Assembly: GCA_963629255.1 (NCBI GenBank)
Contig: CAVGIZ010000001.1
Span: forward strand, 1-32,698
Length of the DNA: 32,698 bases
Reading direction: 5' to 3'
Source of the DNA: Anaerovoracaceae bacterium
Lineage (GTDB): Bacteria; Verrucomicrobiota; Kiritimatiellia; RFP12; UBA1067
Below, one piece after another: positions 6 to 32,456 of this stretch. Below the pieces are notes generated by a model. It saw only the letters and a list, made by a program, of their open reading frames with translations. It was not told the origin of the DNA and did no database searches. The position numbers and the translations under genes are program-made. The stretch's first letter is position 1. Each line of letters starts with the position of its first letter.

Positions 6-464
6 TCAAAAACCGCGGACGAATTTGGGACTGACGATGCGGCCGTTCGCATCGCGAAATGTGGTGCGACCTTGTTTATCCACTACGGAAGTGCCTGTTG
101 GACGACCATGTTTATCGCGATACATCGTCTTGCCAGACTTGTCAGTCACCGAAGATGCCGTTGGATGGCCTTGAGGGTCACGATAAATAATGCGATTGCG
201 CTTTTTATCCTGTTCACCAAAACCAATCGTCTGACCTTGCGGATTGCGAAACGTGGTCTTGCCATATTGGTCCAGCTTGGAGGTTCCAATTATGCGGCCA
301 TGCGAATCGCGATAGGTAATCGTTGGAATCGGCTTCGGTTGTGGTTGTGGCGGAGGCGTCTGAACTTTCTTTTGTTGCGGAGGTGGCGGCGGCTCTGGAG
401 CTGGGACAGTATTCCCCACGAGTGGCAAAATAACTGCCGCGGCGATCGCAAAATATTTATTCAT
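6..464 (-). CDS. Small secreted repeat protein (signal peptide, Pro-rich linker, five ~21-aa YD/RHS-like repeats)
   Basis: 152-aa ORF. Hydrophobic N-terminus MNKYFAIAAAVILPLVG. Linker PAPEPPPPPQQKKVQTPPPQPQPKP. Repeats T-x-[YF]-R-[DN]-x-x-G-[RQH]-x-x-G-x-x-x-x-D-x-x-G-[KR]. GGAGAG lies 6 nt upstream of ATG 464. Confidence 0.6.
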   Translation of the reverse strand: MNKYFAIAAAVILPLVGNTVPAPEPPPPPQQKKVQTPPPQPQPKPIPTITYRDSHGRIIGTSKLDQYGKTTFRNPQGQTIGFGEQDKKRNRIIYRDPQGHPTASSVTDKSGKTMYRDKHGRPTGTSVVDKQGRTTFRDANGRIVSPKFVRGF

Positions 465-486
465 GGCGTCTCTCCTTTAGTGGCAA

Positions 487-1764
487 TTAGAGGTTCGTAA
501 AATCAAGCGTGGCAAAATAATCGTCAAGCGTTTCGGCGCGGCGGATTTCCTTCACCTCGCCATTCGACTCCAACAAAAGTTCCGCGCTGCGAAGCTTGCC
601 ATTGTATTGAAAGCCCATAGAATGTCCATGCGCCCCCGCGTCACAAATGACAACAAGATCGCCCGATTCCAAAACTGGCAGCACACGCTGAATCGCGAAC
701 TTGTCATTGTTTTCGCACAAGGAGCCCGTCACATCATAGACGCTTGTTTCGCCCGAATTTTCCTTACCAGGTACGACAATCTCATGATACGCCCCATACA
801 TCGCTGGACGCATCAAGTTGGACATGCACGCGTCCAGCCCCGCGTAGAGGCGGTACGTATTCTTGATATGCAAGACACGCGCGACCAAGTAGCCATAAGG
901 CCCCGTGATGCAGCGCCCGCATTCCATAAAGAGCTTGATGGACTTGAGGCCGCGGCCTTCAATCAATTCGTCGTAGGCCTTCTCAATCCCCTTCCCGACA
1001 GTCTCAAGGCTCATCGCCTCTTGGTCGGGACGATACGGAATGCCAATTCCGCCGCCGATGTTGACAAATTCAAACGTGATACCCAGCTTCTCCGTGAGCT
1101 CGCCGACAAGCTCGAACAGCATGCGCGCCGTATCGATGATGTAATCGGCACTCAGCTCATTGGAAGCGACCATCGTATGCAATCCAAAGCGCGTCACGCC
1201 GGCTTCTTTCATGCGTGCATAACAATCAAAAAGTTGCTCGCGCGTCATGCCATACTTCGCTTCCTCCGGCTTGCCAATAATCGCATTGCCGCCCTTCAAA
1301 GGTCCTGGATTATATCGGCAGCAGAAGACATGCTCCGCGGCACTTTTCGACATCGGCCGCACACGCAATTCCTCAATCGTCTCACACACCGAATCCCAAT
1401 GCGTGATGTCGTCGAGGTTGATGATGGCCCCGAGTTCCCACGCCTTGCGAAATTCTGCCGCGGGCGTATCGTTCGACGTGAACATAATCGCCTCGCCCAC
1501 GTTGCCAACCTTTTCCGCCAGCACAAGTTCCGCCATCGACGAACAATCGCTCCCAAAATCAAACTCTTGAAGGAGTTTCATCAGGTGCGGATTCGGTGTC
1601 GCCTTGACCGCGAAATATTCGCGAAAGCCCTTGTTCCACGCGAAGGCCTTCCTCAGACGCTTCGCGTTTTCACGGATGGCCCGCGCGTCATAAATATGAA
1701 ACGGCGTCGGCCAACGCGCGGCGATTTCTTCCAGCTTAGCCTTATCAAACGGCAATTCTCTCAT
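487..1764 (-). CDS. lysA: PLP-dependent decarboxylase, Orn/DAP/Arg decarboxylase family 2 (probable diaminopimelate decarboxylase)
   Basis: 425 aa from ATG 1764, with GAGG 9 nt upstream. The ORF-track TTG at 1779 is 5 codons longer. Motifs: YFAVKATPN (PLP lysine context), IGGGIGIPY, SLCENND. It starts a few nt downstream of the thrS stop. Confidence 0.7.
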   Translation of the reverse strand: MRELPFDKAKLEEIAARWPTPFHIYDARAIRENAKRLRKAFAWNKGFREYFAVKATPNPHLMKLLQEFDFGSDCSSMAELVLAEKVGNVGEAIMFTSNDTPAAEFRKAWELGAIINLDDITHWDSVCETIEELRVRPMSKSAAEHVFCCRYNPGPLKGGNAIIGKPEEAKYGMTREQLFDCYARMKEAGVTRFGLHTMVASNELSADYIIDTARMLFELVGELTEKLGITFEFVNIGGGIGIPYRPDQEAMSLETVGKGIEKAYDELIEGRGLKSIKLFMECGRCITGPYGYLVARVLHIKNTYRLYAGLDACMSNLMRPAMYGAYHEIVVPGKENSGETSVYDVTGSLCENNDKFAIQRVLPVLESGDLVVICDAGAHGHSMGFQYNGKLRSAELLLESNGEVKEIRRAETLDDYFATLDFTNL

Positions 1765-1785
1765 GCGAGAAAACCTCAATTGGGA

Positions 1786-3519
1786 TTAGAGCTCGGCCTT
1801 GAGCTTGGCGAGGAACGTGTCCACCGTCATCGCGCCCAAATCGCCATCCGAACGCGACCGCACACTGATCGTGCCCGCCGCCTCATCGCGCGGACCAACC
1901 ACAATCTGGTACGGCACCTTCTGCAAGGTCGCCTCACGAATCTTCGCGCCCAGCTTCTCCGCCGAGACATCAACGTCTACGCGGAAATCTGCCGCGCGCA
2001 ACGCCGCCTGCACCTTCTTCGCGTAGTCCATTGCCTTGTCCGAAATCGGCAGAATGCGCACCTGTTCCGGCGCAAGCCACAGCGGAAACGCGCCCGCGTA
2101 GTGTTCAATCAAAATGCCAAAGAAGCGTTCAATCGAACCCAGCAACGCGCGGTGCACCATGTACGGCTGATGCTCCTTGCCATCGTCGCCAATGTACGTC
2201 AAGTTGAAGCGCTCCGGCAAGTTGAAGTCAAACTGCACGGTGCCGAGCTGCCACGGCCGCCCCAGCGCATCCTTGATCTTCATATCAATCTTCGGACCAT
2301 AAAACGCGCCGCCGCCTTCATCGACCTCATACGTCATGCCTTCCTGCTCAAGCGCATCACGCAACGATTGCGTTGCCTGTTCCCAACGCGCGGGGTCGCC
2401 CACCGCCTTCGCAGGCTTCGTCGAAAGGTACGCCTGAATGTCGTGGAAGCCAAACTTCCCCAGCATCTTGCGTGCAAACTCAACCGTGTCCTTGATCTCC
2501 TGGACAATCTGTTCTGGCGTGCAGAAAATGTGCGCATCGTCCTGAGTAAACCCACGCACACGGAAAAGCCCATGCCGCACGCCATCCTTCTCATAACGAT
2601 ACACCGTGCCAAGCTCCGCGAGACGCATCGGCAAATCACGATAGCTACGCTTCTTGAACTGATAAATCTGAATGTGGAACGGGCAGTTCATCGGCTTGAC
2701 GTAATATTCTTCAATGTACGCGTCATTGCCCGACCCTTCCTGCACCTTCATGCACGGGAACATCCCTTCCTTGTAGAAGCCCAAATGCCCCGACGTCTGC
2801 CACAAAATACTGCGCCCCACATGCGGCGTGTACACAATCTCGTAGCCCGCCTCATAATGTTTCCGCCGCCAATACTCCTCAATCGCCACACGAATACGCG
2901 CACCCTTCGGCAACCAGTGCGCCAAGCCCGGCCCCACCTGCTCCGTGATCGTGAAGAGCTCCAACTGCTTGCCCAAGACGCGGTGGTCACGCTTCTTCGC
3001 TTCTTCCTCGCGCGCAATCATCTCATCGAGCGCCGCCTGGTCCTTCGCGACAATCCCATACACGCGCTGCAACATCTTATTCTTCTCATCGCCGCGGTAG
3101 TACGACCCGGCGAGCCGCGTCAACTTCACGACTCCAATCTGCGCCGAATGCTCCACATGTGGCCCGCGGCACATCTCCACGTAATCACCCACCGTGTACG
3201 TCGAAATATCTTCCCCTTCCGGAATATCCGCCAAGCGCTCCAGCTTGTACTTCTGCCCCGCGAGCATCTTCGCACATTCCTCGCGCGACACCACCTTCTT
3301 CACGAACGGCTCATCCAACGCAATCAGCCGCGCAATCTCCTTCTCAATCTTCGGAAAATCCTCTGGCGTCAACCGATGGGGCAAATCAAAATCATAGTAA
3401 AACCCATCGTCCGTCGCAGGCCCAATATCGACCTGTACGTCGTCAAACAAACCCTGAATGGCACGCGCCATCAGGTGCGCGGCACTGTGACGCCGCATCG
3501 CATCTGTAATCTCAGCCAT
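1786..3519 (-). CDS. thrS: Threonine--tRNA ligase (short form starting at the editing domain, no TGS domain)
   Basis: 577 aa. N-terminus RRHSAAHLMARAI...GPATDDGFYYDFDL aligns with E. coli ThrRS from about residue 66. Class II motifs: YRDLPMRLAELGTVYRYE, FRVRGFTQDDAHIF, GGGAFYGPKID. AAGGAG lies 5 nt upstream of the ATG. Confidence 0.95.
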   Translation of the reverse strand: MAEITDAMRRHSAAHLMARAIQGLFDDVQVDIGPATDDGFYYDFDLPHRLTPEDFPKIEKEIARLIALDEPFVKKVVSREECAKMLAGQKYKLERLADIPEGEDISTYTVGDYVEMCRGPHVEHSAQIGVVKLTRLAGSYYRGDEKNKMLQRVYGIVAKDQAALDEMIAREEEAKKRDHRVLGKQLELFTITEQVGPGLAHWLPKGARIRVAIEEYWRRKHYEAGYEIVYTPHVGRSILWQTSGHLGFYKEGMFPCMKVQEGSGNDAYIEEYYVKPMNCPFHIQIYQFKKRSYRDLPMRLAELGTVYRYEKDGVRHGLFRVRGFTQDDAHIFCTPEQIVQEIKDTVEFARKMLGKFGFHDIQAYLSTKPAKAVGDPARWEQATQSLRDALEQEGMTYEVDEGGGAFYGPKIDMKIKDALGRPWQLGTVQFDFNLPERFNLTYIGDDGKEHQPYMVHRALLGSIERFFGILIEHYAGAFPLWLAPEQVRILPISDKAMDYAKKVQAALRAADFRVDVDVSAEKLGAKIREATLQKVPYQIVVGPRDEAAGTISVRSRSDGDLGAMTVDTFLAKLKAEL

Positions 3520-3540
3520 AATAGCTCCTTAAACAGCTGT

Positions 3541-3557: not shown

Positions 3558-3632
3558 TGCCCAAATTGGTAGTAGGTATTTTTCACCCCAAAAATCTGCC
3601 GCGAAAAACACTTCCCCCTTCCATTGCGCCGC

Positions 3633-3659: not shown

Positions 3660-5639
3660 ATGGATAGTCCATTCAAACTTCATTCGGCTTTCAAACCGAC
3701 AGGCGACCAACCAGAAGCCATTGCCAAGCTTTGCGAGGGCTTGCGGCGGGGCGATGATCGTCTTGTCTTGCAAGGCGTGACAGGCTCGGGCAAAACCTTC
3801 ACGATGGCCAACCTCATTGCCGCGTGGGGTCGGCCCACTTTAATCCTGTCCCATAACAAAACACTCGCCGCGCAGCTTTTCGCCGAGCTCAAGGAATTCT
3901 TCCCCCAAAATGCGGTTGAGTATTTCATCTCGTATTACGATTACTACCAGCCCGAGGCCTACATCCCGCAGACCGATACCTACATTGAAAAGGACGCCTC
4001 GATCAATGAAGAAATTGAACGCTATCGCCTGGCCGCCACCAACGCGCTCATTGCCCGCAAGGATGTCATCGTTGTTTCATCCGTCAGCTGCATTTATGGC
4101 TTGGGCGAATCGACGGAGTATCGCGATTTGGCGGTCGGCTTCAAGCGCGGCGAAAATGTCTCGCGCTCAAACCTCATCGCGCGCTTCGTGGAAGCCCAAT
4201 ATACGCGCAACGATTACGCCTTCACGCCTGGCACCTTCCGCGTCCGCGGCGACATTCTCGATGTCTTTCCCGCCTACGAAACGGAGGCAATTCGCATTGA
4301 ATTCTTTGGCGACGAAATTGATTCCATTCGCACGCTCGACCCGCTCACGGGCAAATGTGACGCGTCCCTTCCCGCGGCAGTTGTCACACCCGCCAAGCAA
4401 TTCGTTCTCGGCAAAGACAAATTTGAAGCGGCCTTCGCACGCATTGAAGCAGAGCTACAGGACCGCCTCAAATACTTCGAATCAAAAGGCAAACTCCTCG
4501 AAGCCCAACGCCTACGCGAGCGCACCGAATACGATATCGAAATGATGCGCGAGCTTGGCTATTGCAACGGCATTGAAAACTATTCGCGCCCCCTCACAGG
4601 CCGCGCCCCCGGCTCGCCGCCCGAATGCTTGCTCGACTATTTCCCGCCCGACTTTCTAACAATCATCGATGAATCACACGTCACGCTTCCGCAAGTACGC
4701 GCGATGTACAATGGCGACCAAGCCCGCAAAGGCCAACTCGTCGAATATGGCTTTCGCCTCCCGAGTGCCAAGGACAATCGCCCGCTCACGTTTGATGAAT
4801 TCAATTCCAAGGTCCATCAGATTGTGTATTGCTCGGCAACGCCGGGCGTCTACGAATGTGAGCAAGCCAAAACGTTCGCGGAGCAAGTCATTCGTCCAAC
4901 AGGTCTCCTCGATCCTGAAATTGAAATTCGTCCACTCAAGAATCAGATCGACGATTTGATTGAGGAGATTCATAAAACTGCCGCGGCGCATGACCGCGTC
5001 TTTGTGACGACTCTCACCAAAAAGAGCGCGGAAGATTTGACCAGCTACCTCCACGAAACGGGCATCCGCGTCGAATACTTGCATTCAGGCATCGACGCCA
5101 TCGAGCGCGTCCAAATCTTGCAACGTTTGCGCAAAGGCGAGTTCGATGTCCTCGTCGGCATCAATCTTCTCCGCGAAGGCTTGGATCTTCCTGAAGTCGC
5201 GCTCGTCGCAATCCTCGATGCGGATAAAGAAGGCTTCTTGCGTTCAACGACCTCGCTCGTGCAAACCGCTGGCCGCACCGCTCGCCACATCCATGGCCGC
5301 GTCATCCTTTATGCCGACCACGAGACCGACGCCATTCGCGACCTCCTGCGCATCACAAAGGCCCACCGCAAAAAGCAAATGACCTACAACAAGGTCCACA
5401 ACATCACACCGCACTCCGTCAAGCGCGCCATCAATGAATCCTCTTACGTCTTCCGCTCAACCGATAAAACTGCCGCGCACGCGGCAAATCTGCCGCGACC
5501 CGATGAAATGGACCCAAATGAACTCTTGGCTGAATTGACGCGCGATATGCTCGAAGCCGCCGACGCCCTTGAATTCGAACGTGCCGCTTATTTGCGCGAC
5601 CAAATCAAGGCTTTGAAGAAGAAGACGAAGAAAGCTTAA
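3660..5639 (+). CDS. uvrB: Excinuclease ABC subunit B
   Basis: 659 aa. MDSPFKLHSAFKPTGDQPEAI matches the E. coli UvrB N-terminus. Walker A GVTGSGKT. C-terminal UVR motif ALEFERAAYLRDQI. The ORF-track start at 3624 lies upstream of the -10 box. Confidence 0.95.
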   Translation: MDSPFKLHSAFKPTGDQPEAIAKLCEGLRRGDDRLVLQGVTGSGKTFTMANLIAAWGRPTLILSHNKTLAAQLFAELKEFFPQNAVEYFISYYDYYQPEAYIPQTDTYIEKDASINEEIERYRLAATNALIARKDVIVVSSVSCIYGLGESTEYRDLAVGFKRGENVSRSNLIARFVEAQYTRNDYAFTPGTFRVRGDILDVFPAYETEAIRIEFFGDEIDSIRTLDPLTGKCDASLPAAVVTPAKQFVLGKDKFEAAFARIEAELQDRLKYFESKGKLLEAQRLRERTEYDIEMMRELGYCNGIENYSRPLTGRAPGSPPECLLDYFPPDFLTIIDESHVTLPQVRAMYNGDQARKGQLVEYGFRLPSAKDNRPLTFDEFNSKVHQIVYCSATPGVYECEQAKTFAEQVIRPTGLLDPEIEIRPLKNQIDDLIEEIHKTAAAHDRVFVTTLTKKSAEDLTSYLHETGIRVEYLHSGIDAIERVQILQRLRKGEFDVLVGINLLREGLDLPEVALVAILDADKEGFLRSTTSLVQTAGRTARHIHGRVILYADHETDAIRDLLRITKAHRKKQMTYNKVHNITPHSVKRAINESSYVFRSTDKTAAHAANLPRPDEMDPNELLAELTRDMLEAADALEFERAAYLRDQIKALKKKTKKA

Positions 5640-6471
5640 TCGCGGGCGCCTTGATAAACGCAATCAGTGCCGCCTCCAAATCAGCATCCGCCACGCCCGT
5701 CCCCTTCTCTTTTCCCGCGCACCGCACATCCTCGCGGCACTTTTCCAATTGCGCCTTGAGCGCGGCAAATTTCGTTTGCCGCTTCTTCTCAATCTCCGCA
5801 AATTCTGCCGCGCGCGCGTCCAATTCCTTCAAGCGCGTGTCCGTTTCCTTCTGTTCCGCCGCGCACCACTCTTGCGCCACTTGAAGCGAATTAAACGAAA
5901 GATTTTCAGCCTTCCGATTCCATCCCCACAAGCGGCCCTTCGTCAAGTTCGTGCACACCAGCGTCACAGGATAATTCGTCACCGCGCCAATCGCCTGATA
6001 GATGCGCATCAGCTCATTTGTATCATGCGTGAAAATAGTCTGGTCATTTGAAAGTGCCGCGGAAAACCTCTTGTATTCGCGATTGAATTCTTTCTCTTCT
6101 TTCGCCACTGCATCCACGCACTCATCCAGCAACACGTCCCAAACATCAAGATACCCGCGCAAATCTTTGCCGCGTGCTTCCTCCGTCCATTCCCACGGGA
6201 GAACAACGTTCGAATGTGCCGTGAGCCACGCGTAAATTTCGCTGGCGCGTTCCTTGTCGCGCGGCGTCCATTTCGCAAGTGGCGTCTTCAAAATGGCCCG
6301 TTCCCAATCGTCCGTGATGCGATCGAGAATCTGCTCCAACCGCGGCACTTCTGCCGCGGACCGAGCGGGTGGCGCCTCATAAAAAAAGACCCGATACACA
6401 AGCGGCAAAACCATCATCACAAGAACGGAGATGATCAAGACTCGCATGAGTTCGCGTCGCTCTTTTCTCAT
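5605..6471 (-). CDS. Hypothetical single-pass membrane protein with C-terminal coiled-coil-like region
   Basis: 288 aa. AAGGAGAACGGAG lies directly upstream of ATG 6471. TM segment LMRVLIISVLVMMVLPLVY. No family recognised. It lies 33 nt downstream of the aconitase stop. Its 3' end overlaps the uvrB 3' end by 35 nt (convergent). Confidence 0.6.
   Translation of the reverse strand: MRKERRELMRVLIISVLVMMVLPLVYRVFFYEAPPARSAAEVPRLEQILDRITDDWERAILKTPLAKWTPRDKERASEIYAWLTAHSNVVLPWEWTEEARGKDLRGYLDVWDVLLDECVDAVAKEEKEFNREYKRFSAALSNDQTIFTHDTNELMRIYQAIGAVTNYPVTLVCTNLTKGRLWGWNRKAENLSFNSLQVAQEWCAAEQKETDTRLKELDARAAEFAEIEKKRQTKFAALKAQLEKCREDVRCAGKEKGTGVADADLEAALIAFIKAPAIKLSSSSSSKP
6340..6359. repeat. 20-nt hairpin word CCGCGGCA-CTTC-TGCCGCGG (copy 1)
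   Basis: Identical to 14621-14640. 8-bp arms with a 4-nt loop, built from an inverted pair of the abundant TGCCGCG word. Confidence 0.9.
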
Positions 6472-6504: not shown

Positions 6505-8430
6505 TTACAGCGAGGCGAGCAAGCCGCCCGACAAAATCAAATGCTTCTCGCGCGCCGACAAATTCGTTTGAACCGTGAACGACCCCTTCGGGCCCTTCAC
6601 GACCAGCTTGCCATCGCCTTCAACCGCCGCGCGAATGCCCTTCATTTCAAGCTTATCGCCCGCGGCCAATTTGTCGTAGTCCTTCGGATTCGTAAACACA
6701 AACGGCACAATGCCAAAGTTGATCAAGTTCGCACGGTGAATGCGTTCAATCGACTTGGCAATCACCGCCTTCACGCCCAAGTACATCGGGCACAACGCCG
6801 CATGCTCACGCGACGAACCCTGACCATAACTCTCTCCCGCCACAATGACGTTCGAAAGCCCCTTCTCGACATTCGCCAAGCACCGATCATGAAACGTCTT
6901 GTCGCACGGCTCAAACACATACTTCGAATACTCCGGCACATTCGACCGGAACTTCAGCCGCGCCCCCGCCGGCATAATGTGGTCCGTCGTAATCTTGTCC
7001 CCCACGCGAATCGCCACAATCCCCGCAACATCCTTTGCAAGCGCCACGCCTTTCGGCACCATCGCAATGTTCGGCCCGCGCACAATCTTCGTCCCCTTCA
7101 CGCCCTTGCGCGCCGTCCCGCGATACAAGAACATCGCATCATCAATCGGGAACTTCTTCGGCGCCGCCACAGCCGCCGTCCCCTTGCACACCGTCACCAC
7201 ACCCGTCAACGCCGATGCCGCGGCCGTCTCCGGCGAAACCAAATACACCTGCGCCGACTTCGTCCCCGTGCGCCCTTCAAAATTGCGATTGTTCGTCCGC
7301 AAACTCACCGCATTCGTCGCCGGGCTCATGTGCGCCCCAATGCAGAACCCACACGCATTCTCCAAAATGCGGCACCCAGCCTGAATCAAAATCCCAAGCG
7401 ATCCATCCGCCGCCAGCATATTCACAACCTGCCGCGACCCGCACGCAATCCCAACTTCCACCTCATCCGCAACATGCTTGCCCTTCAAAATCTGCGCCAC
7501 CGTGCGAATGTCACGATACGACGAATTCGTGCACGAGCCAATCATAATCTGATTGACCTTCTTGCCCGCAATCGACTTCACCGTAATCACATTCCCAGGA
7601 CTATGCGGCGCCGCGGCCATCGGCTCCAACTTGCTCAAATCAATCTCGAACGAATCGTCATATTCCGACCCCGCATCCGCGACAATCTCCACCCAATCTT
7701 TGCCGCGCCCCTGCGCCGTCAAAAACTGCTTCGTCACCTTGTCCGATGGAAACACGCTCGTCGTCACCCCAAGCTCCGCACCCATGTTCGTAATGGTCGC
7801 ACGCGACGGCACATCCAAACTCGCCACAGCCGGCCCGCAATACTCAAAAATCCAACCAACGTTCCCCTTCGTGCCAAACTTCTCCAGCACCTTCAAAATA
7901 ATGTCCTTCGCGCTCACGCCCTTCTTGAGCTTGCCCTTCAAGAAAATCGCGCGCACCTTCGGCGTCGGAATGTGAAACGCCCCGCCCGCCATCGCAACGG
8001 CAATATCAATCCCGCCCGCACCAATCGCAATCTGCCCAATGCCACCACCCGTCGGCGTGTGCGAATCGGACCCCAATAGCGTTGTCCCTGGCTTGCCAAA
8101 CCGCTCCAAATGCAACTGATGACAAATCCCATTCCCCGCCTTCGAATAAATGATGCCATACTTCTTCGCAATCGACGCAAGGAAGTCATGATCGTCCGCA
8201 TTCTCAAACCCAATCTGCACCGTGTTATGATCCACATAGCTCACGGCCAAATCATTCTTGATGTGCGCAACGCCCATCGATTCAAATTGCAAATACGCCA
8301 TCGTTCCTGTCGCATCCTGCGTCAGAGTCTGGTCAATACGAATACCAAGTTCAGAATCCTTCGCCGGATCACCCTCAACGAGGTGCGCGGCCAAGATCTT
8401 TTCAACGACGTTCTTAGGCTGTTTCTTCAT
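6505..8430 (-). CDS. Aconitate hydratase (about 640-aa aconitase-family enzyme with fused swivel domain)
   Basis: 641 aa from ATG 8430 (MKKQPKNVVEKILAAHL). Motifs: GSDSHT, IGSCTNSS, ENACGFCIG, ESYGQGSSREHAA. The 84-codon N-terminal extension in the ORF track runs through the promoter word. Confidence 0.85.
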   Translation of the reverse strand: MKKQPKNVVEKILAAHLVEGDPAKDSELGIRIDQTLTQDATGTMAYLQFESMGVAHIKNDLAVSYVDHNTVQIGFENADDHDFLASIAKKYGIIYSKAGNGICHQLHLERFGKPGTTLLGSDSHTPTGGGIGQIAIGAGGIDIAVAMAGGAFHIPTPKVRAIFLKGKLKKGVSAKDIILKVLEKFGTKGNVGWIFEYCGPAVASLDVPSRATITNMGAELGVTTSVFPSDKVTKQFLTAQGRGKDWVEIVADAGSEYDDSFEIDLSKLEPMAAAPHSPGNVITVKSIAGKKVNQIMIGSCTNSSYRDIRTVAQILKGKHVADEVEVGIACGSRQVVNMLAADGSLGILIQAGCRILENACGFCIGAHMSPATNAVSLRTNNRNFEGRTGTKSAQVYLVSPETAAASALTGVVTVCKGTAAVAAPKKFPIDDAMFLYRGTARKGVKGTKIVRGPNIAMVPKGVALAKDVAGIVAIRVGDKITTDHIMPAGARLKFRSNVPEYSKYVFEPCDKTFHDRCLANVEKGLSNVIVAGESYGQGSSREHAALCPMYLGVKAVIAKSIERIHRANLINFGIVPFVFTNPKDYDKLAAGDKLEMKGIRAAVEGDGKLVVKGPKGSFTVQTNLSAREKHLILSGGLLASL

Positions 8431-24587: not shown

Positions 24588-25155
24588 TCGTTACACTCCA
24601 TCCATTATACGTGTTCATCGCTTTGTCGGGTCCTTGCGTCAAAATCAATTCCGCCGCGTGCACGGCTTCAGCCACAACGACGTCCATCGTCTTGCGCGTC
24701 GCAGGGTCAAACTTCCCTAAGACATGCGCTACGACATCCGACTTATCTTTGCCGACGCCCAATTTGAGGCGCGTGAACGCCGTCGTGCCAAGCGCCGAAA
24801 TGATGTTGCGAATTCCATTATGCCCGCCGCACGAGCCCGTCTTACGAATGCGCATGCGTCCAACTGGCAAATCAATGTCGTCTTGAATGACGAGCAAATC
24901 TGCCGCGGTCGCGTTGTTGTACTTGACGAGCGGCGCAACCGAATTACCCGAAAGATTCATGTAGGTTTGGGGCTTGGCGAGAATAACGGATTGCCCAGCA
25001 AAAGTGCCGCGCGCCATCAAGCACGAGCATTGTTTCTTTTCTTGCCAAGTCGCGCCCATCGCCGCGGCAATCGCATCCACCGCCTCGAAACCAATCGAGT
25101 GCGGAGTATTCTCATACTGCGCACCCGGATTGCCTAAACCAACGATGACTTTCAT
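24580..25155 (-). CDS. pth: Peptidyl-tRNA hydrolase
   Basis: 191 aa. Motifs: MKVIVGLGNPG, TPHSIGF, GGHNGIRNI. Confidence 0.95.
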   Translation of the reverse strand: MKVIVGLGNPGAQYENTPHSIGFEAVDAIAAAMGATWQEKKQCSCLMARGTFAGQSVILAKPQTYMNLSGNSVAPLVKYNNATAADLLVIQDDIDLPVGRMRIRKTGSCGGHNGIRNIISALGTTAFTRLKLGVGKDKSDVVAHVLGKFDPATRKTMDVVVAEAVHAAELILTQGPDKAMNTYNGWSVTNG

Positions 25156-25167: not shown

Positions 25168-26133
25168 TTATTCGTGGTTGAACAAGTCGTTGATCGATTC
25201 GTTCATATGTGTCCGCTTAATGGCCTCGCCAATCAGCGGCGCGACAGAAAGTTGCGTCAACTTGAACGGCAACTGCGCTGGATCAAAGCCCGCACGAAGC
25301 GGAATCGAATCTGTCACCACAAGCTCGTCAAGCTGCGTCTCGTGCGTCAAGCGATCAACGCCCTTCTCGGTGAGCGGGAAGTGCGAAACAAACGCGTGCA
25401 CGCTCTTCGCGCCATTATCGCGGCACATCTTCGCGGCCGCGCTCAACGTGCCACCCGTCGCCGTCATATCATCAACCATAATGACATCACAATCCTTCAC
25501 ATCACCAACGACGCTGAACGCATCCACCGTCGCATCGCCCGTACGCTGCTTCGCCACAATCGCGAGCCCGCACCCAAGCTTGCGGCTATACCCATACGCC
25601 GTCTTCGCCCCACCCGTATCCGGCGACACCACAACTGGCTTGGCCCAGTGCTGATCGCGAATGTACTTCAAAATCACCGGCTCCGCCTTCAGGTGATCCA
25701 GCGGAATATCAAAAAAGCCCTGAATCTGGTTCGCGTGCAAATCCATCGTCAACACGCGATTCGCGCCCGCCGTCTGCAACAAGTTCGCAATGAGCCGCGC
25801 CGTAATCGGCACCCGCGGCTGATCCTTGCGGTCCTGACGCGCATACCCATAGTACGGCAACACCGCCGTAATGCGCGCCGCCGACCCACGCTTCAAGGCG
25901 TCCATAATCACGAACAATTCCATGTACGCCTCATTCGGATTCGGCGAGCCCGACTGAATCACAAACACATCCTTGCCACGCACTGGATCAATAATCTGGC
26001 AAAACGTTTCGCCATCCGGGAAGTGCTTGATATCAATCTTGTTGAGTGGCTTGCCGAGGTAGTTCGCCACCTTTTCTGCGAGCGCGAGATTGGCCGTGCC
26101 CGAAAATACCATGAAGTCTTTGGAGTCTTCCAT
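25168..26133 (-). CDS. prs: Ribose-phosphate pyrophosphokinase
   Basis: 321 aa. Motifs: YYGYARQDRK, VVSPDTGGAKTA, VDDMTATGGTL. Confidence 0.95.
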   Translation of the reverse strand: MEDSKDFMVFSGTANLALAEKVANYLGKPLNKIDIKHFPDGETFCQIIDPVRGKDVFVIQSGSPNPNEAYMELFVIMDALKRGSAARITAVLPYYGYARQDRKDQPRVPITARLIANLLQTAGANRVLTMDLHANQIQGFFDIPLDHLKAEPVILKYIRDQHWAKPVVVSPDTGGAKTAYGYSRKLGCGLAIVAKQRTGDATVDAFSVVGDVKDCDVIMVDDMTATGGTLSAAAKMCRDNGAKSVHAFVSHFPLTEKGVDRLTHETQLDELVVTDSIPLRAGFDPAQLPFKLTQLSVAPLIGEAIKRTHMNESINDLFNHE

Positions 26134-26153: not shown

Positions 26154-27008
26154 TTATAAATCAAATTGTGGTTTTTCTTCTTCTTGAATACCTTCTGGAT
26201 GCGTCTTTTCCCACGCCGCGCGCACCTTCAAAAAACACCAGCCCGTCAACGGCACCGTCAAAATATACCCCACACCAATCACGCCCAACGTAATCCAAAA
26301 GTTCGTCACGAGGAGCGCCACCAACAACAACAGCCCCGCCATCGTCGGCAGCAAATAACTCTTCGAAATATGCACCGCCTTCAAGGAGATCGTCGGCAGG
26401 CGCGACGCCATCAACGACCCCACAAACACAAGCATGAAAATCCCCGTCCACGGATTCTGCAAAAATGCCGCGAACGCAGGAGAAATGCCGCGCGCATCTA
26501 GCGCAAGCGACAAAATCGCGGGCGTCAACACCATCCAACATCCACCCGGCGCCGGCACACCCGTAAAGAAATGCTTCCAATACGGCAACGCCGGCTGTTC
26601 CAACATCGTATTGAACCGCGCCAACCGAAAACAATCACACATCGCATAATAAAGTGCACACCCCAGCACAATCCGTATCAGCGGCTGCGGCACAACCGTC
26701 CCATCCGCCAACACATGCGCCGGCCCACCCGTCATCCAAAAATACATAAACATCGCCGGCGCCACACCAAAGTTCACAAAGTCGGCGAGCGAATCCAACT
26801 CCGCCCCCAACTTCGAACTCGCGTTCAACAACCTCGCCACGCGTCCATCAATCCCGTCACAAATACACGCCACCAAAAGCGCCCACAACGCCGGCATGAA
26901 ACGCCCTTCGCTCGAAAACGAAATCGACGTAATCCCCGCACACGCCGCCATCGACGTAATCAAATTCGGCACAATCGCCCGCAATGGAATCTGTTGTTCT
27001 TCGCTCAT
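26154..27008 (-). CDS. pssA: CDP-diacylglycerol--serine O-phosphatidyltransferase
   Basis: 284 aa. CDP-alcohol phosphatidyltransferase motif DGIDGRVARLLNASSKLGAELDSLAD. Polytopic. ATGA overlap with the psd stop. Confidence 0.85.
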   Translation of the reverse strand: MSEEQQIPLRAIVPNLITSMAACAGITSISFSSEGRFMPALWALLVACICDGIDGRVARLLNASSKLGAELDSLADFVNFGVAPAMFMYFWMTGGPAHVLADGTVVPQPLIRIVLGCALYYAMCDCFRLARFNTMLEQPALPYWKHFFTGVPAPGGCWMVLTPAILSLALDARGISPAFAAFLQNPWTGIFMLVFVGSLMASRLPTISLKAVHISKSYLLPTMAGLLLLVALLVTNFWITLGVIGVGYILTVPLTGWCFLKVRAAWEKTHPEGIQEEEKPQFDL

Positions 27009-27706
27009 GATAAATGTCCGAGTACCGTCTCGCCCGCGACCATCACCTGGCCAATCCGCACGCTCGGCACCACGCCCTCCGGTAAATACACATCGAGCCG
27101 CGATCCAAACCGAATCAGTCCAAACCGCTCCGCCGCCTTCAAATGCGCACCCTCCTCAACCTGCGGCACAATCCGCCGCGCCACCAACCCCGCAATCTGC
27201 GTCACGCCATACTCCTGCCCATTCTCCGCCTTAATAAGGTAGTTGCATCTCTCATTCTCTTTCGACGCCTTATCCAGCGACGCATTGAAAAACTTCCCCG
27301 CGGCAATATACTCCTTGCGCACCACCGTCCCCGCCGTCGGCAGACGATTCACATGCACATTGAACACACTCATAAACACAGACACCCGCCAATGCTTCTT
27401 CCCGTCCGCCAACCCATCCGGCAACTCTTCCTCACTAATCAAACAAATACGCCCATCCGCCGGAGACAAAATCGCCTTCTCATCTTCCGGCGGATAACGT
27501 TCAGGATCACGGAAAAACAAAAATACCCCATAAGCCAGCAAAAACAGCGGCAGCGACAAAACGCTTGCCCACGGACAAAACGCCCCCGCCGCCACACTGT
27601 ACACAATCGCAATCACAAGCGCAATCATCCCAAACTTCACACCCTCACGATTGATGTGCGGGAATAAATACGCGCTGTTCGAAAAATCTGGCTTCTGTTC
27701 GTTCAT
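27005..27706 (-). CDS. psd: Phosphatidylserine decarboxylase proenzyme (short Asd-type)
   Basis: 233 aa from ATG 27706 (MNEQKPDFSNSAYLF). N-terminal TM segments. FGSR self-cleavage context IRFGSRLDVYLP. The ORF-track extension to 27880 overlaps infC. Confidence 0.8.
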   Translation of the reverse strand: MNEQKPDFSNSAYLFPHINREGVKFGMIALVIAIVYSVAAGAFCPWASVLSLPLFLLAYGVFLFFRDPERYPPEDEKAILSPADGRICLISEEELPDGLADGKKHWRVSVFMSVFNVHVNRLPTAGTVVRKEYIAAGKFFNASLDKASKENERCNYLIKAENGQEYGVTQIAGLVARRIVPQVEEGAHLKAAERFGLIRFGSRLDVYLPEGVVPSVRIGQVMVAGETVLGHLS

Positions 27707-28446: not shown

Positions 28447-28484
28447 GAGAAGAAAAGGAGGCGCGGCACTTCTGCCGCGCTTCC
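28447..28484 (-). terminator. Intrinsic terminator of dnaK-groES-groEL, built from an inverted pair of the TGCCGCG word
   Basis: GCGCGGCA(28461-68)-CTTC-TGCCGCGC(28473-80), extendable to about 12 bp (GGAG/TTCC with one G.U). The minus-strand RNA continues TTTTCTTCTCT. It lies 30 nt after the groEL stop. Confidence 0.8.
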
Positions 28485-28514: not shown

Positions 28515-30146
28515 TTACATCATACCGCCCATATCCGGTGCGCCATGTCCGCCACAGCCGCAGGACTCCTTCTTCTCAGGAATGTCCGTGACCATGCAAT
28601 CGGTCGTCAAGAGCAACCCTGCAATGGACGCCGCGTTCTGCAACGCCGAGCGCGTCACCTTCGCCGGATCCACAACGCCTGCCTTCAGCAAGTCGCCATA
28701 TTCGCCCGTACGAACGTTGTAACCATTCGTGCCAGTCGCCTTCTTGACGTTCGCAATGACGAGCGCCGCTTCCTGACCCGCATTATTGACGAGCTTGCGC
28801 AAAGGCGCCTCAATCGCGCGTTCAATGATCTTCGCGCCAACGAGCTCATCGCCCTCCAACTTGAGCGCGTCAATCGCCTTCTGCGCACGCAAATACGCCA
28901 CGCCGCCGCCCGGCACAATGCCTTCTTCAACAGCCGCACGCGTCGCATGCAACGCATCATCCACGCGATCCTTCTTCTCCTTCATCGCCGCTTCCGTCGC
29001 CGCGCCGACCTTGATCAACGCCACGCCGCCCGCGAGCTTCGCCAAACGCTCCTGCAGTTTCTCGCGATCGTAATCAGACGTCGTCTCCTCAATCTGCTTC
29101 TTGATGACCGCAACACGCGCATCGATGTCCGCCTTCTTGCCAAGACCCTCGACAATCGTCGTGTTGTCCTTATCGACAACAACCTTCTTCGCGCGACCAA
29201 GATCCGTCAGCTGAACATTCTCAAGCTTGATGCCGAGGTCCTCGCTGATCAGCTTGCCGCCCGTCAAAATCGCGATATCCTCAAGAATCGCTTTCCGACG
29301 ATCACCAAAGCCCGGCGCCTTCACCGCGCACACCTGGAATGTGCCGCGCAACTTGTTCACGACGAGCGTCGCGAGCGCTTCACCTTCAACGTCCTCCGCA
29401 ATGATCATCAGCGGACGCCCCGTCTTCGCCACAGCCTGCAAAAGCGGCAACATGTCCTGCAAGTTCGAAATCTTCTTCTCAAACAAAAGAATGAGCGGAT
29501 TCTCCAACTCGCATTCCATATCCTCAGGGCTCGTCACGAAATACGGCGACAAATAACCCTTATCGAACTGCATGCCTTCAACAACATCCAGCGTCGATTC
29601 CAGCGTCTTCGCCTCTTCAACCGTGATCGTCCCTTCCTTGCCAACCTTGTCCATCGCGTCAGAAATCATCTTACCGATTTCCGTATCGCCATTCGCAGAA
29701 ATGGTCGCGACCTGCGCAATTTCATCCGCGCTCTTGACCTTCTTTGCCTGCTTCGCGATCGACTCCGTCACCGCCGCCGTCGCCTTGTCAATGCCCGCCT
29801 TCAGCGCCATCGCATTCGCGCCAGCCGTCAAGTTCTTCAAGCCCTCGCGATAAATCGCCTCAGCCAAAAGTGTCGCGGTCGTCGTACCATCGCCCGCAAC
29901 GTCATTCGTCTTCGAAGCGACTTCCTTAACCATCTGCGCACCCATGTTCTCAAACGGATCCGGAAGCTCAATCTCCTTCGCAACCGTCACACCGTCCTTC
30001 GTAATCTGCGGCGACCCAAACTTCTTGTCCAGAATCACATTGCGACCAGACGGCCCCAACGTCGACGTCACCGCCGCCGACAACTTCTCAATGCCCGCCA
30101 AAATTTTCTGCCGCGCATCTGCGTCAAACTTAATCTGCTTTGCCAT
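28515..30146 (-). CDS. groL: Chaperonin GroEL
   Basis: 543 aa. Motifs: [23 protein letters not shown]-terminal ...GAPDMGGMM. Confidence 0.97.
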
Positions 30147-30164
30147 ATTCTTTCTTCCTTTCTT

Positions 30165-30452
30165 TTACTTGTCCAACACGCCCAGAAGGTCCTCTTCACG
30201 GACGAGCTGCAACTTCTTGCCATCAAGCTTAATTTCCGTCCCACCGTACTTCGGCAGGAGCACCGTGTCGCCAGCCTTGACATCGAACGCAATCTCCTTG
30301 CCATCCTTGTCCAGCTTCTTGCCAACGGCAATCACCTTACCCTGCATCGGCTTTTCCTTGGCCGAGTCAGGAATAATAATCCCGCCCACGGTCTGTTCCT
30401 TTTCTTCAACGGGCTCAACGAGCACGCGATCACCCAACGGTCTAATCTTCAT
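30165..30452 (-). CDS. groS: Co-chaperonin GroES
   Basis: 95 aa. [44 protein letters not shown]. Confidence 0.97.
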
Positions 30453-30491
30453 TATTTGTTACTCCTTTTCTTTCTTACGAAATTGTTCTTG

Positions 30492-32456
30492 TTATTTCAT
30501 TGTAAAGTCAGCATCGACGACGTCATCGCCATCCTTCTTGTTGCCGCCATTCGCCGCGCCACCATTCGGCGGCGGCGTCCCCGCACCAGCCGCACCCGCG
30601 CCCGGGTTCGCACCCGCGCCCGGGTTCGCACCCGCCGCGCCAGTAGCCCCGGCCGCACCCGCCGAATACATCTCCTGCGCCACAGGTTCCATCGCCTTCA
30701 TCAGCGCCTCCTGCTTCGCCTTGATGGACTCAATCGGTGCCGCCGGCGTCTTCGCCAGCTCCTCCTTCAACGCCTTCAACGCCGCCTCAACCGGCGCCTT
30801 CTTCTCCGCGGCAATCTTATCCCCCGCATCCTTCAGCGTCTTCTCGACCTGGAAGGCCAAGCCATCCGCCTTGTTGCGTTCCTCAACTTCCGCATGACGC
30901 TTCTCATCTTCCGCCGCGTGCGCTTCCGCATCACGACGCATCTTCTCAATCTCTTCCTTGGACAAACCGCCCGCGGCAGTAATCGTAATCTTCTGCTCCT
31001 TCTGCGTCCCAAGATCCTTCGCCGACACATTCAAAATGCCATTCGCATCAATATCGAACGTCACCTCAATCTGCGGCACGCCCCGCGGCGCCGGCGGAAT
31101 CCCATCCAGGTTGAAATTGCCCAAGCTCTTGTTATCACGCGCCATCTTACGATCGCCCTGGAAAATCGCAATCGTCACCGCCGGCTGATTATCCGCCGCC
31201 GTCGAAAACACCTGCGACTTCTTCGTCGGAATCGTCGTGTTGCGCTCAATCAAAGGCGTCATCACACCACCAAGCGTCTCAATCCCGAGCGTCAACGGCG
31301 TCACATCGAGGAGCAACACATCCTTCACTTCGCCCTTCAAAATGCCGCCCTGAATCGCCGCGCCCATCGCAACCACCTCATCCGGGTTCACACCCTTGTG
31401 CGGTTCCTTGCCAAACAAGCTCTTCGCCTTCTCCTGAATAAGCGGCATACGCGTCTGACCACCCACCAAGACAACCTCATCAACCGAACTCAAGTCCGCA
31501 TCCTGCATGCACTTCCGGCACGGCTCGCTCGTCCGATTCACCAAGTCCATCGTCAGCGTCTCCAATTTCGAACGCGTCAAAGACGTCGTCAAATGCTTCG
31601 GACCCGTCGCATCCGCCGTGATGAACGGCAAATTGATGTCATAGCTCGTCGCGCTCGACAACGCGCACTTCGCCTTCTCCGCTTCCTCTTTCAAACGCTG
31701 CAACGCCATCATATCGTTGCCCAAGTCAATCCCCTGCTGCGCCTTGAAGTCCTCGATCATCCACTTCATGATCGCCTGGTCAAGGTCATCGCCACCCAAA
31801 TGCGTATCACCATTCGTCGCCTTCACCTCGAAAACGCCATCGCCAATATCAAGAATCGAAATATCAAACGTGCCGCCACCAAAGTCGTACACCGCAATCT
31901 TCTCGTTTTTCTTCTTGTCGAGTCCATACGCCAAGCTCGCCGCCGTCGGTTCATTCACAATACGCTTCACGTCTAGCCCGGCAATCTTGCCCGCATCCTT
32001 CGTCGCCTGACGCTGCTGGTCGTTGAAGTACGCCGGAACCGTAATCACCGCTTCCGTAATCTTCTCACCCAAAAACGCCTCCGCATCTTCCTTCAACTTC
32101 CGCAACACCATCGCGGAAATCTCCTGCGCCGTGTAAACCTTATCGTTCACCTTCACCGCAGCATCCCCATTCGGCGCCGCCACCACCTCGTACGGAACCA
32201 TCTTAATCTCGTCCGTCATCTCATCAAACCGACGCCCAATGAAACGCTTAATCGAGTAAATCGTCGACTTCGGATTCGTCACCGCCTGACGCTTCGCAGC
32301 CTGACCCACCAAAATCTCACCCGTCTTTGTAAATGCAACAATCGACGGAGTCGTCCGCGCGCCTTCCTTATTAGGAATCACCGTCGCCTCTCCGCCTTCC
32401 ATAACAGCCATACAGCTGTTTGTCGTGCCCAAGTCAATACCAAGTACCTTTGCCAT
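30492..32456 (-). CDS. dnaK: Molecular chaperone DnaK
   Basis: 654 aa from ATG 32456 ([18 protein letters not shown]). Motifs: [24 protein letters not shown]. The 50-codon N-terminal extension in the ORF track (GQ-rich) is an artefact of the upstream GTGGGAC repeats. Confidence 0.97.

Follow-up and report, generated by a model that had tools for sequence, protein, structure and literature searches.

Why should a single heptanucleotide recur about once every 350 bases along a stretch of bacterial housekeeping chromosome? The question is raised by contig CAVGIZ010000001.1 (assembly GCA_963629255.1), a 32,698-bp sequence from a bacterium of the Kiritimatiellia, which was analyzed over its full length and is referred to here as the window. 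The core word TGCCGCG occurs in the window in 93 exact copies, 48 on the plus strand and 45 on the minus strand, spanning positions 435..30978 at a mean spacing of 332 bp, and its 13-nt extended consensus is A-A-A-W-B-TGCCGCG-S. From its sequence features and the analyses described below, we propose that the word may be a lineage-specific uptake or self-recognition signal, of the type of the DNA uptake sequences (DUS) of Neisseriaceae and the uptake signal sequences (USS) of Pasteurellaceae, in a genus-level clade of Kiritimatiellia within the Planctomycetes–Verrucomicrobia–Chlamydiae (PVC) group. We put the probability of this reading at about 0.45.

The initial annotation of the window, made by hand scan, had counted 48 TGCCGCG and 45 CGCGGCA; an exact recount agrees, and all 28 of the start coordinates that it listed were found again. 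Its estimate that 5–10 copies should be expected holds for zero-order composition (6.6 in the window) and is too low under stricter null models: dinucleotide-preserving shuffles of the window gave 15.2 copies (standard deviation 4.1, maximum 24), permutation of codons within genes gave 17.1, and a synonymous-codon shuffle that preserved every protein and the codon usage of each gene gave 24.9 (standard deviation 3.3). Relative to this last, codon-aware null, the word is enriched 3.7-fold (z = 20.6), which is the largest deviation among all 7-mers of the window and bears out the annotation's view that codon usage does not explain the copies. The outliers ranked 2–15 under the same null are, in 14 of 14 cases, sub-words of the extended consensus, including AAGTGCC, AGTGCCG, TTGCCGC, AAAACTG, GCAAATC, AACTGCC, and AAAGTGC; as these are overlapping pieces of one motif, the window holds one anomalous word family. 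The commonest 10-mer, AAGTGCCGCG, is present in 19 copies, and AAAAGTGCCGCGG is a motif-bearing form. When matches with 0, 1, 2, and 3 mismatches were compared with the codon-aware null, the over-representation was 3.73, 1.17, 1.00, and 0.97, respectively, so that the one-mismatch excess is modest; positions 1 and 3 of the core are tolerant, and the central C4 and G5 are intolerant. Such a graded excess is as expected if molecular drive has acted on the word.

Caution with null models is needed, because unrelated 7-mers reached zero-order z-scores of 20–30 in other genomes that were retrieved, and zero-order enrichment by itself is weak evidence. TCCTCGA/TCGAGGA was 13–22-fold over its zero-order expectation in L042, L030, L070, and L076, which are metagenome-assembled genomes (MAGs) of Acidobacteriota and Chloroflexia, with 45 copies against 2.0 expected in the 21.8 kb of L042; this excess is probably driven by codons or peptides.

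The annotation had asked whether the enrichment is confined to the window. Five further assemblies were recovered through UvrB homologues with an identity of at least about 97% (GCA_963648195.1, GCA_963645785.1, GCA_963615135.1, GCA_963613115.1, and GCA_963651665.1), and the clade loci L322, L323, L327, L328, and L332, together with the window, amount to approximately 80 kb of clade DNA. Their nucleotide identity to the window is 86–91% in the shared uvrB-hyp288-acn block, outside which their gene neighborhoods differ. TGCCGCG ranked first or among the first few 7-mers in all five, with a density of 1.8–3.1 per kb across the six genomes, and approximately 24 kb of clade DNA without homology to the window held 61 copies (25 on the plus strand and 36 on the minus strand) with the same logo; the enrichment thus extends well outside the window. 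Meanwhile, the motif was absent at UvrB identities of 85% or less or DEAD-helicase identities of 72–86% (L324, L325, L326, L329, L330, L331, and L333), and likewise in two Kiritimatiellia of GTDB (L002 and L003), making nine relatives without the word in total. The word is therefore clade-wide yet phylogenetically very narrow. The UvrB homologues carry the NCBI name "Kiritimatiellae bacterium"; the nearest DnaK, in a one-genome-per-species GTDB set, belonged to a Kiritimatiellia MAG at 78% identity, and none of the DnaK relatives found (at 78% identity or less) had the word. L333 and L324 contained no intermediate form or dialect, and no sister dialect was seen among the relatives. One of them, L329 (ERZ27263845 k119_154126, 13.2 kb), has 27 bare cores against 3.8 expected, a 7-fold zero-order excess; it was ruled out as an intermediate, as its copies have no A-rich flank. 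None of its 27 cores is followed by G, so that TGCCGCGG does not occur, which hints that CCGCGG is avoided in L329, possibly through a SacII-type restriction system. Among the matches listed, viral contigs gave single chance matches to CGCGGCA-N4-TGCCGCG and none was dense in the word, and the long metagenomic matches to the exact 18-mer hairpin were GC-rich background with at most 1.5 copies per kb and no skew. A Victivallaceae MAG (L016, JAZRGW010000030.1, 21.8 kb) had CCGGAAA(A) in 39 copies against 2.6 expected (16 plus and 23 minus), with eight copies of GGAAATTTCC and little extended flank, and may represent another PVC lineage with a hyper-abundant word of its own.

In the window, the conserved unit extends beyond the core. 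The base is A at positions −5, −4, and −3 in 56, 45, and 54 of the 93 copies, respectively; 86 copies have A or T at −2, and only 11 have A at −1. At +8, G (47 copies) and C (30) together make up 77, the remainder being A (12) and T (4). The 5' A/T run and the 3' G or C noted in the initial annotation are thus both seen in the counts. The A at −3 is kept although third codon positions are otherwise G+C-rich, GCG accounting for 66% of Ala codons. This A-rich flank is a specific property of exact cores, at which it scores 2.59, compared with 1.14 at random positions and 0.3–2.0 at one-mismatch cores.

The palindrome CCGCGG occurs in 47 of the 93 copies, close to the half estimated in the annotation, which had suggested a highly iterated word of the type of the highly iterated palindrome 1 (HIP1) of cyanobacteria, tied to a methyltransferase. 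A word of this kind could arise as a by-product of methylation and repair if a C5-methyltransferase acting on CCGCGG were combined with a very-short-patch-type endonuclease, or if repair or gene conversion were biased. Besides the palindrome itself, this origin is favored by the CpG-deamination products TGCTGCG and TGCCGTG, which stand at approximately 0.5 of their codon-aware expectation, by the extreme GC skew of the clade, which points to an unusual mutational regime, and by the missing TGCCGCGG of L329, which hints at CCGCGG-specific systems in the group. However, the other deamination products, TGCCACG (0.92) and TGCCGCA (1.08), are not depleted. The window contains 67 CCGCGG sites, of which 46 lie within the motif and 21 are free, against approximately 15 expected at zero order; as free sites are near expectation, the palindrome is not the selected unit. 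The core is asymmetric and thus fails the palindrome criterion of HIP1, half of the copies lack CCGCGG, and a 13-nt unit with a degenerate A-rich flank is unlike short repair contexts; the methylase alternative of the annotation is weakened accordingly. Furthermore, the window and the clade loci read were found to contain no gene for a DNA methyltransferase, Vsr, or a restriction enzyme. The methyltransferase of the window, the only one in these loci, is rRNA-methyltransferase-like and was rejected as a link to the word. We regard a methylation or repair origin as improbable.

The placement of the copies relative to genes is given below. The window is housekeeping chromosome, including a lysA-like gene, thrS, uvrB, acn, a Na/Pi transporter (NaPi), Ham1-HAD, metK, a radical-SAM gene (rSAM), a DEAD-box helicase (DEAD), rpsI, rplM, hydF, pth, prs, pssA, psd, infC, groEL, and dnaK, and neither a tRNA nor an Rfam-family RNA was found in it. 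Each line gives the coordinates and strand of the core, the five bases before and the one base after it, and the gene, with sense or antisense relative to that gene.

435..441 (+), ataac/g, hyp152 antisense
1336..1342 (-), aaaag/g, lysA-like sense
1456..1462 (+), aattc/g, lysA-like antisense
1990..1996 (+), aaatc/c, thrS antisense
3165..3171 (-), agatg/g, thrS sense
3478..3484 (-), cacag/c, thrS sense
3597..3603 (+), aaatc/a, intergenic thrS/uvrB
3818..3824 (+), ctcat/t, uvrB sense, at a clade-specific K/R-to-A change (LIAKW to LIAAW)
4373..4379 (-), acaac/g, uvrB antisense, universally conserved Ala-Ala (PAAVV), 5/5 genomes
4979..4985 (+), aaaac/g, uvrB sense (KTAAA), 5/5 genomes
5471..5477 (+), aaaac/c, uvrB sense, hypervariable linker, private to the window
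5480..5486 (-), agatt/t, uvrB antisense, private to the window
5491..5497 (+), aaatc/a, uvrB sense (LPR frame), 5/5 genomes
5733..5739 (-), aaaag/a, hyp288 sense, 5/5 genomes
5761..5767 (-), aaatt/c, hyp288 sense
5806..5812 (+), aattc/c, hyp288 antisense, 5/5 genomes
6055..6061 (+), gaaag/g, hyp288 antisense
6168..6174 (+), atctt/t, hyp288 antisense
6341..6347 (-), agaag/g, hyp288 sense, left arm of a hairpin pair
6352..6358 (+), acttc/g, hyp288 antisense, right arm, private to the window (relatives TGCTGCG)
7216..7222 (+), gccga/g, acn antisense
7430..7436 (+), caacc/a, acn antisense
7701..7707 (+), atctt/c, acn antisense, 5/5 genomes
8634..8640 (-), aaaac/c, intergenic, upstream of acn
8840..8846 (-), aaaag/g, intergenic
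9857..9863 (-), gcaag/g, NaPi antisense
9989..9995 (+), ggaat/c, NaPi sense
10235..10241 (+), atttc/g, NaPi sense
10427..10433 (+), gaaaa/c, NaPi sense
10697..10703 (-), agatt/c, NaPi antisense
11083..11089 (-), ctgga/c, Ham1-HAD antisense
11348..11354 (+), tccgg/g, Ham1-HAD sense
11417..11423 (+), ctttc/g, Ham1-HAD sense
11478..11484 (+), aaatc/g, Ham1-HAD sense
12042..12048 (-), gcgaa/c, Ham1-HAD antisense
12113..12119 (-), ttttt/c, MTase sense
12612..12618 (-), agaag/g, MTase sense
13259..13265 (-), aaaag/g, SBP5 sense
14142..14148 (+), aacga/g, SBP5 antisense, overlaps the 14145 copy (TGCCGCGGCA)
14145..14151 (-), gattt/g, SBP5 sense, overlapping palindromic pair with 14142
14622..14628 (-), agaag/g, SBP5 sense, left arm of a hairpin pair
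14633..14639 (+), acttc/g, SBP5 antisense, right arm of the hairpin pair
15006..15012 (+), tcact/g, metK sense
15456..15462 (+), aaatc/a, metK sense
15602..15608 (+), gggtt/c, metK sense
15680..15686 (+), cgcta/a, metK sense
15791..15797 (-), ttttg/g, metK antisense
16120..16126 (-), ggaag/g, rSAM antisense
16477..16483 (-), agaag/g, rSAM antisense
16586..16592 (-), agatt/g, rSAM antisense
16711..16717 (+), ggatt/a, rSAM sense
16997..17003 (-), ttcgg/g, rSAM antisense
17334..17340 (+), aaaag/g, intergenic rSAM/GT2, convergent pair with 17378
17378..17384 (-), aaatc/g, intergenic, convergent pair with 17334
17994..18000 (-), aaaac/g, GT2 sense
18135..18141 (+), aaaac/c, GT2 antisense, +/- pair with 18150
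18150..18156 (-), aagat/g, GT2 sense
18497..18503 (+), gtaag/g, DEAD antisense
18823..18829 (+), atgaa/g, DEAD antisense
18940..18946 (+), gctaa/c, DEAD antisense
19835..19841 (+), aattc/c, DEAD antisense
20162..20168 (+), aaaac/a, DEAD antisense
21561..21567 (+), gaaag/c, TPK antisense
21798..21804 (-), acttt/g, TPK sense, left arm of a hairpin pair
21809..21815 (+), aaaag/c, TPK antisense, right arm of the hairpin pair
21879..21885 (-), gattc/g, TPK sense
22064..22070 (+), aaaat/g, CAAX antisense
22352..22358 (-), gaaag/g, CAAX sense
22628..22634 (-), acatt/a, CAAX sense
22696..22702 (-), cattc/g, hisJ-like PHP sense
22771..22777 (+), aaatg/g, hisJ-like PHP antisense
23267..23273 (-), aaaac/g, hisJ-like PHP sense
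23546..23552 (-), tgctt/a, PHP/hydF overlap region, sense
23808..23814 (-), ggaat/c, hydF sense
23848..23854 (+), ctttt/c, hydF antisense
23952..23958 (-), aaaac/c, hydF sense
24165..24171 (-), cgcat/t, hydF sense
24189..24195 (-), gaaag/g, hydF sense
24236..24242 (-), aagaa/c, hydF sense
24557..24563 (+), gcgat/c, hydF antisense
24901..24907 (+), aaatc/g, pth antisense
25005..25011 (+), aaaag/c, pth antisense
25063..25069 (-), gcgat/g, pth sense
25419..25425 (-), agatg/a, prs sense
26466..26472 (+), aaaaa/a, pssA antisense
26486..26492 (+), agaaa/c, pssA antisense
27299..27305 (-), tatat/g, psd sense
28462..28468 (-), agaag/c, intergenic groEL/infC, arm of the terminator hairpin
28473..28479 (+), acttc/c, intergenic, arm of the terminator hairpin
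29342..29348 (+), gaatg/c, groEL antisense
30109..30115 (+), ttttc/c, groEL antisense
30807..30813 (-), aagat/g, dnaK sense
30972..30978 (-), attac/g, dnaK sense

Genes hold 86 of the 93 copies and intergenic DNA holds 7, in 7.1% of the sequence; the word is thus 92% coding, in proportion to coding DNA, at 2.83 per kb in coding and 3.01 per kb in intergenic DNA. The annotation had placed copies in every frame, on coding and template strands, and between genes, and we likewise found 46 sense, 41 antisense, and 7 intergenic, yet the two Ala-Ala frames hold 52 of the 87 coding copies. The word avoids the most constrained genes: its density is 0 in rpsI, rplM, and infC and approximately 1 per kb in groEL, dnaK, prs, and psd, compared with 5–8 per kb in hyp288, hydF, TPK, and pth. 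The highest density, 8 per kb (7 copies), is that of hyp288 (5605-6471, minus strand), a conserved open reading frame (ORF) of 287-288 aa between uvrB and acn that is present in all clade genomes and had no match in Pfam, NCBIfam, or PADLOC.

The peptides encoded by the word are raised as well. The codon pair GCC-GCG occurs 43 times against 16.5 expected and GCG-GCA 26 times against 10.3 (2.5-2.6-fold). In UvrB at equal Ala content, the clade has 11.6 Ala-Ala against 8.3 +/- 1.7 in 110 relatives (1.4-fold), and the peptide K-x-A-A, encoded by AAA-WNT-GCC-GCG, averages 2.7 against 0.39 in the same relatives (7-fold), with [LMV]PR at 1.0 against 0.04. Among the six uvrB copies, one lies at a conserved Ala-Ala, one at the clade-specific K/R-to-A change, and the rest in variable segments, including the linker. 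Could the word then have no function and be an artifact of the composition of a GC-rich, strongly skewed genome, through its codon usage, its Ala-Ala dipeptides, and mutation that depends on context? The Ala-Ala frames, the dominance of GCG, the high zero-order scores of other 7-mers in unrelated loci, and the flankless excess of the core in L329 all lean that way. Against this stand the excess over the synonymous-codon shuffle, the occurrence of identically flanked copies in all six frames as well as between genes, the flank being tied to the exact core, the equal enrichment of the word and its reverse complement despite strand asymmetry, and the relatives of similar GC content and proteins that lack the word. 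An artifact of this kind seems very improbable to us.

Strand asymmetry makes the lack of polarity informative. The GC skew of clade DNA is −0.19 to −0.32 (the window, L322, L323, L327, L328, and L332). On the coding strand, the GC skew at third codon positions (GC3 skew) is +0.3 to +0.8 in minus-strand genes and −0.4 to −0.8 in plus-strand genes; as its sign flips with gene strand, the asymmetry is tied to the DNA strand in a replication-like manner and not to transcription, and the whole window lies on one such polarity. On this constant background, the orientation of the word is 48:45 in the window and 25:36 in other clade DNA, and the sense and antisense copies are nearly equal, in agreement with the annotation, which had seen no strand bias. 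The absence of skew relative to replication or transcription removes polar signals such as Chi or the FtsK-orienting polar sequences (KOPS), as well as RNA-level functions. Chi sites, KOPS, and other polar words that impart chromosome architecture resemble TGCCGCG as over-represented 7-8-nt oligomers of the core chromosome; they differ in being co-oriented with replication, and this candidate was rejected. An RNA-level motif was likewise ruled out by the equal sense and antisense counts and the lack of an Rfam match.

A non-polar, Chi-like "self" mark, read in both orientations in recombination, in repair, or by a defense nuclease, would attenuate the degradation of the cell's own DNA and promote the loading of RecA. 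It would be compatible with a word that is over-represented in core housekeeping DNA and lineage-specific, in a clade with signs of recombination. Known Chi sites are 5-8 nt long, without extended flanks, co-oriented with replication, and less dense, that of Escherichia coli occurring roughly once per several kb. The present word lacks polarity on strongly polarized strands and, at 2.8 per kb for a logo of 13 nt, is much denser than E. coli Chi; we consider such a mark slightly less probable than a methylation or repair origin.

The extreme skew is common to exactly the word-bearing clade, and |skew| is approximately 0.05 or less in relatives at approximately 80% protein identity; L324, an 85% UvrB relative, has a GC skew of −0.12 on a 4.5-kb contig. 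The G-rich strand of the window carries 21 of its 27 genes. The segment 21390-25155 (TPK, CAAX protease, hisJ-like PHP phosphatase, hydF, and pth) shows almost none of the GC and GC3 skew of its neighbors (−0.2 to +0.1) and also has the highest word density, 4-7 per kb; it is possibly a recent inversion or an import from a conspecific.

Some copies form inverted pairs. Five minus/plus pairs have a start-to-start distance of exactly 11 nt (CGCGGCA-NWWN-TGCCGCG), against approximately 0.07 expected from the densities. Two features 3' of genes involve such pairs.

28461..28480 (-), terminator-like hairpin 3' of groEL: inverted pair GCGCGGCA-GAAG-TGCCGCGC, then CUCCUUUUCU
5470..5497 (-), triple cluster in the uvrB 3' linker: UUGCCGCGUGCGCGGCAG + UUUUAU, 118 nt 3' of the hyp288 stop

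The groEL hairpin has an 8-bp stem (7 GC) followed by the T-rich tail CUCCUUUUCU (−28.5 kcal/mol, z = −4.9) and makes a convincing predicted intrinsic terminator; the annotation, too, had spoken of inverted pairs in a terminator. The pair in the uvrB linker possibly terminates hyp288, and the convergent pair 17334/17378 between rSAM and GT2 could fold into a stem with a long loop (−17.7 kcal/mol, z = −2.4). These pairs, with their fixed spacing and the strong groEL terminator, might suggest that the word exists for the hairpins, as a terminator or an element of the repetitive extragenic palindromic (REP) type. However, such pairs account for only about 10 of the 93 copies; of the five, three lie inside genes, have no U-tails, and are not terminators; and no Rfam match was found. 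The REP-like candidate was rejected, as 86 copies lie within genes, in both orientations, and most are single rather than paired. As a general explanation the hairpin is contradicted and hardly credible; it stands as a secondary use of some pairs only.

Site turnover was followed in five aligned genomes (21 site-columns). Occupancy is bimodal, with 10 columns occupied in 4-5 genomes and 11 in 1-2, and each genome has private gains. The mean occupancy is 2.95, compared with 2.62-2.67 for control 7-mers, in a small sample; pairwise sharing covers 8/16 and 8/13 window sites, the corresponding values for all 7-mers being 46% and 36.5%. Well-flanked copies persisted, in 4-5 of the genomes, in 8/13 cases and poorly flanked copies in 2/8, a difference that is not significant. 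Because site conservation is barely above control, these data do not discriminate between drive and weak selection. The informative sites of the five genomes support many incompatible splits, and L328 matches L323 at 99-100% identity over the first ~600 columns and L327 and L332 at 97-100% thereafter; the mosaic blocks and incompatible splits indicate homologous exchange, with the proviso that contigs of MAGs may be chimeric. The switch of nearest relative in L328, within uvrB, lies near motif copies at alignment columns 731 and 746 (window 3628-8454 aligned with L323, L327, L328, and L332) and would reflect either recombination between species or a chimeric assembly.

These data bear on the alternative that the word is a chromosomal or nucleoid word like HIP1, that is, the binding site of a DNA-organizing protein or a structural element with no role in uptake. 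HIP1 (GCGATCGC) is likewise a hyper-abundant short word found alike in coding and non-coding DNA; it is palindromic, has cognate orphan methyltransferases, has clearly conserved sites, and is periodic at 10-90 kb, and its function has remained unknown for decades, with methyltransferases, biased repair, and nucleoid structure under discussion. The proportionate coding and intergenic densities, the many-fold and lineage-restricted over-representation, the occupancy of roughly half of the sites in at least four of the five genomes, and an A-tract beside a GC core, which would be a plausible protein-binding or bending site, all suit such a role. In contrast to HIP1, the present word is no palindrome, its turnover is near-neutral with only marginal site conservation, and it is found in a very narrow clade rather than a phylum; its spacing within the 33-kb window is also like random, with no evenness (coefficient of variation 0.95, compared with 0.98 +/- 0.10). 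We judge a nucleoid word unlikely, though the likeliest of the alternatives.

The comparison with uptake sequences is closer. The annotation had drawn this parallel from the density, asymmetry, AT-rich flank, intragenic copies, and inverted terminator pair, all of which stand; one feature of DUS/USS that does not hold is an enrichment in intergenic DNA. Haemophilus influenzae has 1,471 USS and Neisseria meningitidis 1,892 DUS, and 34.5-65% of USS/DUS lie within ORFs (34.5% for the N. meningitidis DUS). The density is approximately 0.8 per kb in both species, and, given typical coding fractions, these ORF fractions amount to intergenic enrichment. In these systems, motif-encoded peptides are doubled, copies are placed in poorly conserved genes and positions, mismatched forms of USS show a graded excess ascribed to molecular drive, and DUS occur as lineage-specific dialects that track phylogeny. 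Like the present word, USS (core AAGTGCGGT, with AT-rich flanks) has an asymmetric GC-containing core beside A/T-rich positions, occurs in both orientations with approximately two thirds of copies in ORFs, and shows raised motif peptides, a preference for poorly conserved genes and positions, and a mismatch gradient. The USS core also shares AAGTGC with AAGTGCCGCG, which is probably a coincidence. USS differs in host (Gammaproteobacteria instead of PVC), core, and intergenic enrichment, whereas the present word has an A-rich flank on the 5' side only, is approximately 3-fold denser, and is known from sequence alone. DUS (for example, AT-GCCGTCTGAA) shares a density of the thousands-per-genome type, both orientations, terminator pairs, and a lineage-specific word, and differs in its lower fraction within ORFs (34.5% in N. 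meningitidis against 92% coding here), in its dialects among relatives, where the present word vanishes in neighboring lineages, and in having the receptor ComP (PMC4906244), of which no counterpart is known here.

Among the known classes of hyper-abundant words, only uptake sequences combine a dense, asymmetric, flanked consensus, lack of polarity, co-evolution with the proteome, terminator pairs, a mismatch gradient, and lineage specificity, and an uptake or self-recognition signal is therefore ranked first. Under such a mechanism, a receptor of the transformation machinery, by analogy perhaps a surface or periplasmic minor type IV pilin, would bind double-stranded DNA carrying A-A-A-W-B-TGCCGCG-S in either orientation, and fragments bearing the word would be preferentially taken up and recombined into the chromosome. 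Because of this preference, mutations creating or improving a copy would be over-transmitted by molecular drive. Copies would build up where protein function tolerates them, gain being balanced by mutational decay and purifying selection, and inverted pairs would secondarily serve as transcription terminators. We infer, in this scheme, DNA uptake, its sequence bias, the identity of the receptor, and transformation as the source of recombination.

Several points weigh against an uptake signal. Unlike DUS/USS, the word shows no intergenic enrichment; the DEAD helicase, unlike UvrB, has no peptide shift; and site conservation is barely above that of control words. The mosaicism could partly reflect chimeric assembly of MAGs, and recombination need not stem from transformation. 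The same clade has the extreme GC skew, so that an unusual mutation or repair regime may contribute. The organism is uncultured and known from MAG contigs, the case being made at the level of sequence; no gene for competence machinery or a DNA receptor was found in the ~80 kb of clade DNA read, and the literature searched contained no report of natural transformation or uptake sequences for Kiritimatiellota. We also entertain, with somewhat less confidence than the uptake reading itself, the tentative view that the signal arose independently and recently in a Kiritimatiellia genus of gut or anoxic type, with a receptor unrelated to ComP and together with the extreme strand asymmetry, and would be the first outside Proteobacteria.

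Other features of the window were noted alongside the word. A 1143-aa ORF at 28545-31976 (plus strand), antisense to groEL-dnaK, matches the Pfam family NAD-GH (PF10712), which we take to have been built from ORFs antisense to dnaK, and a 1057-aa ORF at 607-3780 (plus strand) lies antisense to lysA-thrS; both are read as shadow ORFs favored by strand composition and not as genes. At 17111-17259, between the convergent radical-SAM and GT2 genes, lies a tandem array of 6.8 copies of the 22-nt unit TCTACACCCGGTGCAGCTCATG, in which the variable half of later units is reverse-complemented (ACATGAGT compared with ACTCATGT). Among the loci retrieved, this array was found only in L001, which is the window's sequence from another sample; the other clade loci do not cover the region. 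Furthermore, TGGTATAATAT, usually as TA-TGGTATAATAT, has eight exact copies in the window against 0.07 expected, each just upstream of, and directed toward, its gene.

3541-3551 (-), thrS
3639-3649 (+), uvrB
8438-8448 (-), acn
10907-10917 (+), Ham1-HAD
14703-14713 (-), SBP5
14778-14788 (+), metK
21305-21315 (-), rplM-rpsI
28363-28373 (-), infC

From its sequence and position, we identify TGGTATAATAT as a putative invariant extended -10 promoter box. At uvrB, acn, Ham1-HAD, and SBP5, it ends approximately 8-20 nt before the likely start codon, and this short distance implies leaderless or near-leaderless mRNAs. Pieces of TGGTATAATAT are also enriched in the 81% relative L326.

As far as the searched literature shows, in which the raw word gave primer matches only, the word, the taxon that carries it, and its apparently very recent origin have no precedent; the clade appears very young, in a phylum otherwise poorly known. 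Should the word have no part in uptake, it would be a second hyper-abundant word without known function, beside HIP1, and its asymmetry, unlike HIP1, constrains the possible explanations. In practice, the word could be used as a tag with which to bin these MAGs and recognize foreign DNA in them. Only two proteobacterial families are known for sequence-specific DNA uptake, and in the literature searched uptake sequences were reported only from Neisseriaceae and Pasteurellaceae. If the reading as an uptake signal is correct, the PVC group would join the lineages with sequence-biased transformation, one would predict a new receptor, the molecular-drive model would become testable on a recent origin, and the word would be the first of its kind outside Proteobacteria. 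On the question of how such signals originate, motif-free close relatives are available here for comparison, and an origin so recent would offer a natural experiment on the birth of such signals and their spread through a proteome.

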